DNA from: Phallusia mammillata
Taxonomy: Eukaryota
NCBI GenBank assembly: GCA_965637545.1
Contig: OZ281494.1
Coordinates: 15,500,001-15,564,000, forward strand
Direction: 5' to 3'
DNA length: 64,000 bases
Under the pieces are notes generated by a model. The model worked only from the letters and a program-made list of their open reading frames with translations, was not told the DNA's origin and did not search any database. Made by a program: the position numbers and the translations under genes. Of the stretch, positions 53,807-64,000 are shown one piece after another. Each line of letters starts with the position of its first letter. The stretch's first letter is position 1.

Positions 53807-56800
53807 ATGGAAGAGGAAGATTTGTCGTATAAAGCCGAGTATGCCAAAAGCAATCGTGCATCATGCAAGGGTTGTTCAAGTTTGATTGCAAAAGATTCAC
53901 TTCGACTTGCCCATTTGGTCCAGTCAAGGCATTTTGATGGCAAGGTTGTTGTTTTTTCAAATATAAGGTAAATACGTTAAAATCTTATTTTAGTGACTCT
54001 GACCCTTTCAGCAACCACATTGGTTCCACTACTCCTGCTTTTTTGGAAAATTTCGTCCAACTTCAGTTGATGAAGTTGGTGACTATCATGATCTTCGGTG
54101 GGAAGATCAGGAAAAGATTAGAACCCAGATCGAGAGAGGCCCATCAAAAAAGAATGGTGCTGGGGCACCTTTGGTATCAAAGTCACTAAAGGATTTTGTT
54201 ATTCAATATGCTTTGTCAGGAAGAGCCAAATGCAGAAAATGTGACGGAAAGATTGAAAAGGTTTAAAATTTTTGTCTCATTTTTGTTAACAGATATGTTA
54301 AAGGTTTGGGGTTGCATAAAATGCTGTCATGGTTAACATCAAGTTAACTTTATTTCGCTTGAGAAAAGAAAACATAGCATCACAATTGCACTAAAACAAT
54401 CATTTAACTGGAAATAGCTATGCAATGTTGAAACGTTATGGATCGCAAACTAAGCAGGGTACAATTGGTGAACTATGGTGTGTGCTTTAGTGATGGGACG
54501 ATACCAGGTTTTGAAGCGTGTACCGAGTACGAGTACCACATGTATATACCGAGTATGATTACCGAGTACTTAAGTGTAGTGTTGTACTTAGTTGTATATC
54601 ACTGGCTAATTTTTCTGCCATGGTCGGGGTACAGGCGTGCACACACCATTGCAGAAAAATGTAATCTCCACGTGATAGAGAAAAAGATATACGTAAACTG
54701 GCGGAATGTTATTCCAATTTTGTGCTGTCCAAAGCCAATATTGGCATAAAGTTGCCTGTATTCTTATGGTGTAAATCGGCCTACGGTACTCGCATGTTGG
54801 TATCAAAAACTGAGACAAAATATTTCAATACCGAGTATGAGTATCGATACCACTAAAATCGTTCGATACCGAGTACCGGGTGCCCCTCCCATCACTAGTG
54901 TGCTGATCTGAAACCGTATGTTTTAGGATGAGATTCGGATATCCCATAAAGAAGTACATCCTGAGAAACCACAACTTGGTTTTGTGGATCGTTGGCATCA
55001 TGTTGGATGTTTCGTGAAGCGCCGCAAGGAGTTTGGTTGGATTGATGGTGGTTACACAGCTGATATGATTAGTGGCTTCAAAGCAATTGACCCTGAAGAC
55101 CGAAAAACAATAACAAAATTGCTTGACAAGAAAGGGTAAATAGTTTTGCATTGAATGAACATTTTAGATACACTTTGTTTTTAAAAAAATTGCATCATAT
55201 TTTTGGCAATTAAATCATGTATATTTTGCTATGTTTTATAGGAAGAAAAGTCAAAAGTCAAAAGAAAATGAGTCACCTGGATGCAGCATTAAACAAGAGG
55301 CTTCCCCTCCATTAACAGATGATCAAACAAAGAAACTAAAACATCAAAGTTCTTTGTTGTGGAAAGTGATTGACACACTGAAACATATTGACTTGAAAAA
55401 GAATGATTTTATTGAGATTCTTGAACATAATCAACAAGAAGTCCCAAAAGGTCTTGATAAGGTCGGAAGCAATGTTTCTAGTCCAGATAGTATTTTTGCT
55501 GTTGTAATTTGCTGATGTTTTGCTTTCAGAGGTAATATACTGCAGCAGGCATAAGTGATAGCTTAAACTGTTAGTTTTAGCTAAAATTTTATAAGTGTTT
55601 CTGGTCTTTGTTTTCAGATGACTAGCATAATTTTGTAGGAGCCCCGTGAAGATAATAATCCCTGTTAATGCAGTGTGGAATTTTTTGTTTTATTTTGTCA
55701 CCGGACTGACCCTAATAAAAATATGTTGTTTTAAGACACTTTTTATGGGTCCCCTTCCCTGAAGGGGACACATATTGATTTTACTTGAATTGTTTGTTTG
55801 TTTTTTGTTTTTTTTCTTCCCAAAGTTTGTCCGACTCATTTTTCCATCAAATGTTTGATGGATTTGGCTGAAATTTACACAGATGGTAGATATAGTTATG
55901 TAGATGTGCATCCCACTTTGTTTTTGTTGATAACCCCAGTATTTACCCCGCCCGCCCCCTAAAATAGGTATTTTTACCCAAAGTTTGTCCGACTCGTTTT
56001 TCCATCAAATGTTTGATGGATTGGGCTGAAATTTAAACAGATGGTAGATATAGTTATTTAGATGTGCATCCCACTTTGTTTTTGTTGATAACCCCAGTAT
56101 TTACCCCGCTAGCCCCCTAAAATGGGTATTTTTTCTCTGAAGTTTGTCCGACTCGTTTTTCCATCAAATGTTTGATGGATTTGGCTGAAATTTACACAGA
56201 TGGTAGATATAGTTATGTAGATTTTTTTTGTAAAATTTTGGTTTAAGATGTCCGGTTCTTTAAGAAATTTGGTTACAAAAAGATGTCCTTCGCTGTTTCG
56301 TCATGGATTGCACCCCAGCATTGTACAAATGCAACGAAGGTGTTTAAATGTACAGGAACACCAAAGTAAAAAACTTATGCATGATTTTGAAATCAATGTT
56401 CAGCGCTTTCATGTTGCTGAAACACCAAGTGATGCCCATACTGCAGCTAAAAGTTTAATGGAGTCAAACCACTTTGTTTTTGTTGATAACCCCAGTATTT
56501 ACCCCGCTCGCCCCCTAAAATGGGTATTTTTACCCAAAGTTTGTCCGACTCGTTTTTCCATCAATTGTTTGATGGATTTGGCTGAAATTTACACAGACGG
56601 TAATTATTCATGTAGATGTGCACTTTGTTTTTGTTGATAACCCCAGTATTTACCCCGCTATCCCCCTAAAATGGGTGAGTTTTTAAATAGTGTCAGAATT
56701 GGGTGAAATTTGGATTTCTTGCATAGTATGCCATTTATAGGTGTCGATTGTTGTGTTCAACCCTGTAGTCCTAACGTTTACCCCACAAGCCCCTAAAGTG

Positions 56801-59800
56801 TAAAACGTATTTGTATGTTACTGGGCACCACAAACGAAAGATTTCTTTGGCGCATTAGTGTTACAAGGGCAACCAGTTGTATGTTGCTTGGTGGTCGTTT
56901 TTGCGCCATGGCAGTTCTTGTTAACAGCCCTATGACGTCAGAAACATTAACGGTTGTTGCTCAAAACACCTCTAGTGGTCGAAATTTTAAACATTAGCGG
57001 ATTGGGCTGAAATTTTGCAGTACTATTGATTGAGTCATTGTGGTTTTTATATATTTTTTAATTTGTGTGTCGAACCCAATTAGTTACCCTACTAGCCCCC
57101 TAAAATGGGTCAGTTTTTTAAAACGTTAAGTAGGACATACTTCAAACAATATCTGGGGTGAATCTAATTTTATAGTTTGTATTCTACATAGTATTATTAT
57201 TTAAGCCCAGTGCCGATCACTGTGTTTTACCTTACAATACCTGACTTTCTCATGGTTATCTCTTGAATTGCGTTATTTTCAACTTTGCATGTGTGGGGAC
57301 CCATGAGTTTTTGCCTGCAGAAACGACTAAAGTTATAAAAGACGGTGACTAATATTAGGGACCTAATACAAAATAAGCATAGGAAATATATTTATGTTTT
57401 AAAATAGCTTATAGTGTATATACAAGGGCAATATGTGCTAAGCCACCCTTCTAGTTATTACTTAAAATTAGTGGTAGGACGAGTACCCGGTACTCGGTAT
57501 CGAACGATTTCAGTGGTAGCGATACTCGTACTTGCTGACAAAATATTTTGCCTCAGTTTTCGATACCAATATGTGAGTACCGAAGGCCGATTTACACCAT
57601 AAGAATACGGGCAACTTTATGCCAATATTTGCTTCGGACAGCACAAAATTGGAAAGTTCCGCCAGTTTACGTATATATTTTACGCTATCATGTGTGTGCA
57701 AGCCTGTACCCCGACCATGGCTGATAAATTAGCCAGTGATATACACTTAAGTACTGGCATCGAAGGTATATACATGTGGTACTCGGTATCGGTACTCGCT
57801 TCAAAACCTGGTATCGTCCCATCACTACTTGAAATTATTCGCCTTCAATGCAATGGTATAGTATATGCTAAACATTTTCTGTTTAGATTTATGAAAGGAT
57901 TGCTGATGGTATGTTGTTTGGAACATTAAGTCCATGTGCTCAATGTGGTGGACAACTTGTGGCTAGTAGTCGAGGCTTTTACCAGTGTCATGGTAATATT
58001 TCTGAGTGGACAAAATGCACGAACACTACTCTTGATGTAAAGCGGGATGAGTGGGTTATTCCAAATAATTTAAAGGAAGAGTGTCCATATCTGTAAGTGT
58101 TGCAAAAAGCTCAAATAATGGCAAGAAATTACTGAATTTAGATTTTATAAGTTTATCAAGTTGCTATCACCCTAAGGAACTGTCACCAATTTATTAGGTT
58201 CTGCTCATACAAGCTGTTTAAAAAGTTTTTTGAGTTTTTTTAGTGAATTTAGCAGCATAGTAAATTACTTAGAAATCTGGGTTGGTATATATGGCCTAAA
58301 ACACGAGAGTTTGGCACCCTTGCTGTTTCACATAGACCAAAAGACTGACCTAGATGTTCCAGTGTTCTTCTTTTTGTATATTATTAGTTGTTTCTAGATG
58401 TGTAGTTCAAGGATGTGAATTTTTCCTTGTAAAATTTTTTCAGGAGTCTATACACAACCTAACTGGCTAATGTTTTTCCAAAACTTGATAGTTTATGTAT
58501 AAAACTGTTGTGTTTCAGAGCAAAATATAAGTTCAAGCCACAAGATCGCATATTTCCTCCACTGTAAGTTTGTTGTTACAAGTCCCAAATATATATACCT
58601 TGTAACCGAGACCAATTTTAGACCACCAGTGAAACCCCTAAAAAATAAAAAGATTGTTATCCTTGGAAAAGTAACATCAAGTAAAGAAGACCTGAAAGCC
58701 AACATTGAAAAACTTGGAGGCTCAGTAACAACTTCTCTGTCCAAGGCCTACTGCTGTATTTCCACAAAAGGTAAAGGAAATTGATCTCATAGATTAAGTA
58801 GGATATTTTACTCCAAATTTTGCAAGACAAAATAACATGCAATTAGCCGAATCAGCTTGGTAGTGTGACATCAACAGATGTTTAGAAAAGACATTGGGAA
58901 TACTTGTTTTGTATTAAGTATGACATTGTTGCATTTTTGTACTGCTGTCTTAGCTGTTGGCCACTTTATTCATCCAATTCCCCATTATCAGAAAAAAGCA
59001 TGAATAATTATGGGTCCCCTTCATATTGATTTTACTCAAAATGTTTTCTTTCATTTTTCTTCTCCCCAAAGTTTGTCCGACTCGTTTTTCCATCAAATCC
59101 TTGATGGATTTGGATGAAATTTACACAGATGGTAGATGTGCATCCCACTTTGTTTTTGTTGATAACCCCAGTATTCCCCTGCAGCGGCGAAATCAGAAAA
59201 CTACAAAGCTTTCGCTAAAATTACCTGTTCTTCCTGTCAATTAGATGGGTAGAGAAACCGCCAATTTTGGAAAAAGTGCTTTGCCACATAACGCGTCGTT
59301 TTGAACGACGTGTGACATCATAATGACGTCATTAGGGATTTCCCCCCAAAAAATTGTTGGACCCCCCCTTTAAAAAATCCCGGATACGCCCCTGAGTGAC
59401 AGTATGAATAAGTTATCTTTCAAATTTACCTCACACTATGACACATGTACTTAAATCTTTATAGATAAAACAACTCTAGTTCAAATATATTTTACCAAAT
59501 GTTGGCCTTTTGTACAGGTGATGTAGATGCCGGGAAAAAAAGGATGAAAGAAGCTGAAGTCAATGACCTTTTTATTGTGTCTGAGGAATTTCTGAAAGAA
59601 TGTGATGCAATGAAAACTCCTCCGCCATCTTTGATTCCTCTGCTAAAGAAATTTAGCCTTGCTAGCTGGGGAAGTGAGGTAATAAATGACAAGTTGTGTG
59701 TCTGAATTAAATCGATATTACCCAGTTTTGAGTTTGTGATCTTTGAATTGCAGAGAGAAACCACTGTGGATGGAAAGAGCATGAAACGGACTATGGAGGA

Positions 59801-63692: not shown

Positions 63693-63929
63693 TTATGTGA
63701 TCACAAGTTCATCAAAGCCTGTTTCATCATCAAATTCTCTTGTAAATGTTAAACTATTTGATGTTCCAAGTACGATTTCTGCAGTAGTGTGAATGACAGC
63801 AGCCCCTTTAGAAGAAAGGTGGCCTCCGACCAAATTACCATCACTATCAGACAGAGAAATGTGAAGATGAACTTTTCCACATTTAGATAGTGTTCCAACC
63901 AGGGACACTATTTCTGTCTCCCTATCAAC
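63693..63929 (-). CDS. Last exon of a PPC/DUF296-domain protein
   Basis: EIVSLVGTLS, HLHISLSDSDG..VGGHL, TTAEIVLG, FTREFDDETGFDEL; preceded by a cag acceptor. Confidence 0.85.
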   Translation of the reverse strand, partial: VDRETEIVSLVGTLSKCGKVHLHISLSDSDGNLVGGHLSSKGAAVIHTTAEIVLGTSNSLTFTREFDDETGFDELVIT

Positions 63930-64000
63930 CTGTAAATACTAAAACACAAAGATTTATATATTTGAAGTTAACAGTACTATAACTATAAGCCTAAAAACAA

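Follow-up and report, generated by a model that had tools for sequence, protein, structure and literature searches.

A fragment of spliced SUCLG2-type mRNA inside a Helentron-type element in PARP1 intron 4 of Phallusia mammillata, probably a cDNA patch at a break

Introduction

Insertion of reverse-transcribed, spliced mRNA at a chromosomal break has already been described in mouse and human, as retrotransposon-mediated double-strand break repair (RMDR; PMC4516963) and as class 2 templated sequence insertion polymorphisms (TSIPs; PMC5110952), and the case reported here changes no model on its own. Retrocopies made by long interspersed nuclear elements (LINEs) retain the 3′ end, the poly(A) and the target duplications, and those found in bat Helitrons do so too (PMC4224331, PMC5470649), whereas the fragment described here keeps the 5′ end. 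A reverse transcriptase (RT) from an element without long terminal repeats (LTRs) adds untemplated nucleotides, mostly A, and makes end-to-end jumps (PMC8857657). In animal DNA transposons, single-copy cargo is for the most part acquired independently of transposition (PMC8277862). Among rolling-circle elements, a Rep-helicase protein with a fused endonuclease is the Helentron layout (PMC4067079), and the Helentron-associated interspersed elements (HINEs) of oysters typically carry a central array of units of about 160 bp (PMC7492417). We analysed a stretch of 64,000 nucleotides of the ascidian P. mammillata (assembly GCA_965637545.1, contig OZ281494.1, positions 15,500,001 to 15,564,000 of the forward strand), called the window below, whose own positions are used throughout. 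In it a Helentron-type element lies in intron 4 of PARP1 and holds a 246-bp piece of a SUCLG2-type gene, for which an initial annotation had proposed a recent capture by template switching or templated break repair, from genomic DNA or mRNA, so that break repair from an mRNA template was among its options. We found that the template was a spliced RNA, and we favour the reading that cDNA was patched into a break within a copy of the element that was already in place.

Results

Insert and parent gene

The insert and its parts, as obtained by alignment to its own genome, are as follows.

56223..56468, + strand (sense to PARP1): putative cDNA patch, the 5′ part of a spliced SUCLG2-type mRNA, replacing 7 bp of array unit 3
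56223..56224, + strand: two extra T without counterpart in the parent (the alignment starts at 56225)
56225..56313, + strand: part of parent exon 1, with 23 nt of leader and, from the ATG at 56248 on, 66 coding nt; substitutions against the parent at 56241 and 56244
56314..56458, + strand: parent exon 2, 145 nt, exactly joined to exon 1; differs at 56320 and 56350
56459..56468, + strand: first 10 nt of parent exon 3, exactly joined to exon 2; blunt junction to the element

A search of the genome with the insert gave two candidates, the window site itself and a single SUCLG2-type gene on contig C4, matched in two pieces. Between insert and parent 240 of 244 bases are identical, and the 4 substitutions amount to 1.6% (95% interval 0.4-4.1%). 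The insert lacks the first two introns of the parent, of 91 bp and 432 bp, exactly at their GT..AG borders, and the template was therefore spliced RNA. Of the two sources first proposed, mRNA thus stands, while capture of genomic DNA from the parent locus is ruled out by the two missing introns; the proposed comparison of the insert with the genome gave just this answer, a parent on C4 and an insert that crosses two splice junctions. The parent keeps its introns and an open frame through exons 1-3, so that the donor is distant and intact. Copies of exons 1-2 other than insert and parent were not found in the assembly by genome search, nor was a retrocopy remnant of exons 3-4, for which the only candidate (1/1) was the parent.

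The reading of the insert as 25 nt of leader plus about 73 intact codons of a mitochondrial succinyl-CoA ligase beta N-terminus is borne out by its frame and its PDB matches. The 25 nt before the ATG are 23 parent-matching nt (with 2 substitutions) and the two T, and 73 whole codons follow the ATG at 56248 without a stop. All three PDB matches of the peptide (3/3) are to the beta chain of GDP-forming succinyl-CoA ligase, with E about 1e-5, and in Pfam it reaches ATP-grasp_2 under the cut-off of that family. By its best hits the insert is SUCLG2-derived, as first named. Both coding substitutions of the insert are non-synonymous, and one of them alters a Leu common to the parent and the PDB matches; such changes at the insert are expected of decay within it. 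The frame of the insert ATG reads on through the element as a frame of 129 codons (56248-56637).

Break site and junctions

The insert breaks a tandem array, which repeat analysis places as follows.

55819..56684, + strand: central array of four units of about 158 bp, the third interrupted

The units lie at 55819-55975, 55977-56135, the broken third, and 56533-56684. The third unit stops at 56222 and resumes at 56469, and the 7 bp present at this place in units 1 and 2 are lost. No target duplication of 3 nt or more was found at the insert junctions or within 2-3 nt of them, and the insert has no poly(A). We thus see all that had been described of this interruption, namely a 246-bp insert in the third unit that replaces 7 bp and has neither target-site duplication nor poly(A). 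At the left junction stand the two extra T, which may be a non-templated addition or slippage in a T run, with a 1-nt T overlap, so that microhomology there does not exceed 1 nt. On the right the insert is joined bluntly and has no microhomology. The insert ends in three A at its 3′ end, as would 18 of its 244 positions (7%).

We also considered whether this base of the unit is a break hotspot, and this candidate was rejected. A pattern search gave 25 matches, one of them the window copy, and no gene piece was present in the other 24. Of these, 19 are single-base variants, or near that, which continue into the unit. The remaining 5 comprise two units that are degenerate, one diverged relative, and one case each of a short duplication and a short deletion. 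One sister copy (L036:752) breaks at the same unit base as the patch and runs into another repeat, and another (L020:1487) is joined to an upstream element 4-5 nt from that base. Since L036 is the single further copy that breaks at the same base, which is too little, a hotspot is not supported; with L020 it makes it possible that the break base is a weak spot of the unit. A 20-nt palindrome about 45 nt upstream, examined as a possible break-site hairpin, folds no better than shuffled sequences (z -1.0 and -0.8).

Host element

The features of the host element are listed below.

55740..57456, + strand: non-autonomous Helentron-type element (HINE), whose ends are common to dispersed copies and a coding partner; left edge fuzzy, 55740-55743
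55744..55774, + strand: 5′ terminal hairpin with a perfect 9-bp stem and a 3-nt loop (-12.2 kcal/mol, z -4.9, equalled by 0 of 200 shuffles)
55769..55777, + strand: left arm of a 9-bp subterminal inverted repeat, read from the sequence
57429..57437, - strand: right arm of the same repeat, 19 nt from the CTAGTT end, read from the sequence

The final 33 nt of the element occur exactly 841 times in the assembly (control 0), which gives at least 841 copies. The 3′ end reads CTAGTT in 31 of the 35 element ends listed, the 5′ ends begin T-rich, and the flanks are unrelated. At its own edges the window element shows no target duplication, merely an AT match of 3-4 nt. Most copies have 2-4 array units, and one has 6. 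The body of the window element is about 95% identical to the nearest sibling copies (about 4.5-5% pairwise divergence). Head-to-head pairs of elements and fold-back duplications at the 5′ hairpin were seen at three loci (L011, L023 and L031).

A coding partner with the same ends was found, 10,293 bp long, on the - strand of contig C3 (G000:C3:11676403-11686695; L075, L076). Its last 29 nt are identical to those of the window element, and its last 60 nt agree at 48 of 60 positions. It codes for Helitron_like_N (Rep), a PIF1 helicase, and Exo_endo_phos in the frame of the helicase C-terminus, and also for DUF6570 and a 228-aa frame near the 3′ end. The coding region is spread over several frames (introns or frameshifts), and the partner may therefore not be active. 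Helitron_like_N has 7 matches in the genome, of which 4 were extended and 1 has the ends of the window element. Another of these loci, on a small contig with long internal repeats (L066, G000:C36:9051-12536), holds a stop-free Helitron_like_N frame of 1162 aa, near which the ends of the window element were not found. On the strength of the partner, whose Rep, PIF1 helicase and fused endonuclease lie between the same ends, the element at 55740..57456 is Helentron-type as the initial annotation had it, and we class it as non-autonomous. It may be noted that it is filed by this partner and not as a textbook HINE, since it has no stable 3′ hairpin: the search for a 3′ palindrome or stem-loop gave -2.3 kcal/mol (z +0.5, with 128 of 200 shuffles folding at least as well). 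A further departure is the subterminal inverted repeat, which has only 9 bp and lies 29 nt inside the 5′ end, whereas HINE descriptions give 11-15 bp starting 2-4 nt from the 5′ end.

Sister copies

The survey of sister copies covered 145 loci with 139 distinct 3′ ends, of which 39 were dropped because the sequence examined around them contained no 5′ end, leaving 100 complete copies. Contig C1 and well-preserved copies are over-represented in it, and it is blind to inserts common to three or more copies. Ten unique segments of at least 40 bp were obtained, namely the window insert, 7 terminal inverted repeat (TIR) elements with 8-bp duplications and 2 other multicopy repeats. Thus 9 of the 99 other complete copies have a unique insert, in every case another repeat, and a gene patch is present in none (0/99, upper 95% bound 3%). 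From these two counts it follows that the copies often receive later inserts and that gene patches are rare. Against at least 841 element ends the patch is single-copy; amplified cargo is accordingly ruled out in this assembly, and the proposed count of other element copies with the insert comes to none. Capture and carriage of the fragment by the rolling-circle element is not supported, as the insert is found at the window site and in the parent only (2 of 2 candidates), and there is no sign that the patch ever moved with the element. With a single-copy insert and no gene patch in 99 other copies, capture by the element is not shown. Also, at L055, L111, L128 and L163 different TIR families have inserted at the same two 8-bp sites of different Helentron copies (two copies each), which is target preference.

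Sequencing runs

Of 24 runs listed, 20 contain part of the stretch and 5 at least half of its words, and 4 of these 5 (X1, X2, X3 and X5) were examined. They were picked for having the most words and are thus a non-random sample; all are DNA-like, were used as contigs and come from 3 studies, one of which may be the source of the assembly. No RNA run holding the stretch was found among the runs listed. Contigs of all four runs (4/4) carry spliced or junction sequence of the insert. In X2 and X3 a 79-bp contig crosses the left junction with zero differences, in X1, X2 and X3 contigs extend over both the exon 2/3 join and the right junction, and in X1, X2 and X5 a spliced exon 1/2 contig carries the insert alleles. 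In X2 and X5 this last contig has an extra insert-only single-nucleotide polymorphism (SNP) at 56336, which is absent from the assembly. Parent contigs that hold the introns are also present in the runs and keep the parent letters at the four differing sites. With 31 letters required on both sides of a bridge, exon 2/3 in X1 is the one join that qualifies. At the element junctions the contigs reach 12-30 letters into the repeat, which collapses there, and no contig among the pieces listed spans the entire insert. With spliced or junction sequence in four of four runs and the insert-only SNP in two, a misassembly is very unlikely, and the junctions do not lack the support whose absence had been named as grounds for dropping the case. 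The word recent has to be softened, since the divergence is 1.6% (0.4-4.1%), two samples carry an insert-only SNP and all four runs examined have the insert.

The left junction of the element is a single contig at about single-copy depth in X2, X3 and X5. The ratio of the insert-specific contig to this junction is 1.02 in X1, 0.82 in X2 and 0.47 in X5. The X5 depths are 27.7 for the left junction and 13.1 for the insert-specific contig, where 13.8 would be expected on one haplotype and 21-28 on both. The ratio of 0.47 fits a haplotype with the element and without the patch, which we take as a hint only, since other element-junction contigs in this run range from 16.7 to 27.7. No empty-site contig for the left edge of the element was found among the contigs listed.

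Host gene

The host gene is PARP1, as had been stated, since it has zf-PARP, PADR1, BRCT and PARP domains in this order, five of five PDB matches to PARP1, and exons that join: the first five coding exons give a single open frame, with GT..AG introns. The intron number is counted by coding exons.

55242..55461, + strand: fourth coding exon of PARP1 (left host exon), from the open exon join and domain matches
55462..57886, + strand: PARP1 intron 4, 2425 bp, GT..AG, containing the Helentron-type element and a small TIR element
57887..58092, + strand: fifth coding exon of PARP1 (right host exon, PADR1 zinc ribbon), from exon join, domains and PDB matches

The small TIR element, which we take to be hAT-like, has two copies in opposite orientation around PARP1 exons 3-4 (54488-54897 and 57469-57827), with arms of up to 186 nt (88%), each flanked by a near-perfect 8-bp duplication (7/8). 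A third copy lies inside a Helentron copy in L153. Just 3′ of PARP1 and convergent to it is an exon of a PCC-domain (PF03479) gene at 63693-63938 on the - strand.

Discussion

We give a probability of roughly two in three to a cDNA patch at a break in a resident element copy, i.e. to a class 2 templated insertion or RMDR. This reading rests on the spliced template, the ectopic site, the small target loss, and the lack of retroposition marks and of amplification. A germline double-strand break would have opened the third unit of a resident non-autonomous Helentron in PARP1 intron 4. A retroelement reverse transcriptase would then have copied a fragment of SUCLG2-type mRNA, either after an end-to-end jump, with the broken right-hand end serving as primer, or into free cDNA, and may have proceeded to or near the 5′ end of the mRNA. 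The two extra T on the + strand would be untemplated A that the enzyme put on as the cDNA was finished, and the left side would have been closed by end joining. Later the patch, in an intron and likely spliced out, would have undergone neutral decay and drifted to high frequency. Reverse transcriptase is in supply in this genome, as 150 of 150 scored RT matches lie above the Pfam cut-off, most of them in stop-free frames. The Helentron is likely the landing site rather than the agent; amplification of the patch by it at a later time is conceivable in principle but has not occurred in this assembly.

Several points weigh against this reading. The divergence of the insert (1.6%, 0.4-4.1%) overlaps half of the divergence of the element from its siblings, and as the ages of patch and element overlap, the order of element first and patch later is unproven. 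RMDR inserts usually have 1-5 nt of microhomology (PMC4516963), and none is present at the right junction here. Also, the X5 depth is noisy (16.7-27.7), depth is not copy number, a popped SNP bubble would give about 21, and an empty-site or patch-free allele was not directly seen in the runs examined.

Among the rivals, the one that survives best, though unlikely, is that the cDNA was joined while the Helentron copy was being made or inserted, by a template switch or by repair of a rolling-circle intermediate that was nicked or single-stranded, whereby element and patch would arrive together. The patch does lie inside an element whose family has an endonuclease-coding partner, both are at about single-copy depth in X1 and X2, their ages are inseparable, and Helentrons are known to capture gene fragments (PMC4067079). 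Yet a second copy with the patch was not found in the assembly, the survey gave no gene patch in 99 other complete copies (upper 95% bound 3%), no RT domain was found in the 8 partner frames scanned, and the patch has half depth in X5. It is doubtful that the Helentron took up the cDNA during its own rolling-circle insertion, with the endonuclease nick priming a borrowed reverse transcriptase. If true, a DNA transposon would here have captured a gene piece at the RNA level and would be seen prior to any amplification, with a start codon and mitochondrial-type leader in frame with the element (129-codon frame).

It appears rather improbable that the patch was copied as DNA, in the manner of filler DNA or gap repair, from an older SUCLG2 retrocopy now lost, polymorphic or unassembled. 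Such an origin has been argued for bat Helitron retrogenes without target duplications (PMC4224331), the 4 fixed differences could predate the patch, and the assembly is one haplotype in 312 contigs. But neither exons 1-2 nor exons 3-4 of such a retrocopy are found in that assembly, the spliced exon 2/3 join enters the element and not the rest of exon 3 in the pieces listed, and an unseen extra step would be added while an RNA origin is still required. We hold it for decidedly unlikely that an ordinary full-length LINE or Penelope retrocopy inserted here and then lost its 3′ part, poly(A), one target duplicate and the 7 bp by deletion. Messages retroposed into Helitrons are known (PMC4224331), RTs abound in the genome, and the patch ends in three A, as it would at 7% of positions (18/244). 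This course requires two events, the deletion end must fall within 7 bp of the insertion point without microhomology, and such inserts are usually 5′-truncated with intact 3′ ends (PMC5470649), the reverse of what is seen here. An assembly or library chimera of cDNA and genomic DNA, to which the element-side overlaps of 12-30 letters (below the 31-letter bar) and the want of a listed contig over the whole insert would lend themselves, has almost no probability in view of the insert-allele junction and spliced contigs in four of four runs from 3 studies at depth near that of the parent, the SNP at 56336 in two runs and not in the assembly, and the four sites at which the parent contigs retain the parent letters.

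A cDNA patch at a break, if correct, makes this locus an unusually clean natural record that spliced mRNA can be written back into the germline of an invertebrate, at a site unrelated to its gene and with none of the marks that LINE retroposition leaves. The strengths of the case are two exact splice joins, a known parent, a pre-insertion sequence known from the sister units, and several samples that carry the insert. A further caution is that the presence of a gene fragment in a Helitron-type element does not by itself mean that the element captured it. Patches of this kind provide raw material for amplification by rolling-circle elements at a later time.

Comparison with known systems

In the literature searched, and as a weak negative, we found no report of a cDNA patch in a HINE or an ascidian. 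A LINE-processed pseudogene made by target-primed reverse transcription has a poly(A) tail, an intact 3′ end and a target duplication, whereas the patch stops 10 nt into exon 3 and has no duplication. LTR-mediated partial retrocopies (PMC5470649, PMC5131818) are likewise partial and without poly(A), but they have an LTR on both sides, and the patch is flanked by Helentron array. RNA-templated double-strand break repair with whole intron deletion (PMC12065846) also leaves exact exon-exon joins of spliced mRNA in DNA. It acts in cis at its own locus by homology, whereas the patch is ectopic, on another contig and without homology; as the patch sits at an unrelated site, repair in cis does not fit. 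Single-copy Pack-TIRs (PMC8277862) resemble our case in that a single-copy host fragment in a DNA transposon is made without transposition; their templates are DNA, and the pipeline used there discarded intron-less cases. Bat Helitron retrogenes (PMC4224331) are alike in being intron-less gene copies in a rolling-circle element that has patch-free sister copies, but they show poly(A), target duplications, 5′ truncation and amplification (118 copies), none of which the patch has.

As for the host, the HINEs DINE-1, HINE-Mo of a mite, Cg_HINE of an oyster and Pearl (PMC4067079, PMC7492417) share with the window element the lack of coding capacity, a T-rich target, no target duplication, a 5′ inverted repeat, an array of units of about 160 bp and an endonuclease-coding partner with shared ends. 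They differ from it in the subterminal repeat, of 9 bp only and 29 nt from the 5′ end in the window element, which also has no stable 3′ hairpin. The nearest likeness of the patch itself is to RMDR inserts and class 2 TSIPs. RMDR inserts (PMC4516963) are partial spliced mRNAs that skip several introns and are patched into a break without poly(A), as here; they are Cas9-induced, internal pieces of mRNA and mostly joined with microhomology, whereas the patch is natural, inherited, a 5′ piece and blunt at its 3′ junction. Human class 2 TSIPs (PMC5110952) agree with it in the distant template, the intact donor, the absence of target duplication and poly(A), the micro-deletion with untemplated bases, the occurrence of spliced cDNAs among the templates, and heritability. 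The patch differs from them in being in an invertebrate, inside a rolling-circle element and apparently at high frequency. What is less usual here is that the fragment comes from the 5′ part of the mRNA, is joined bluntly at its 3′ side, occurs naturally in a germline and lies in a Helentron.

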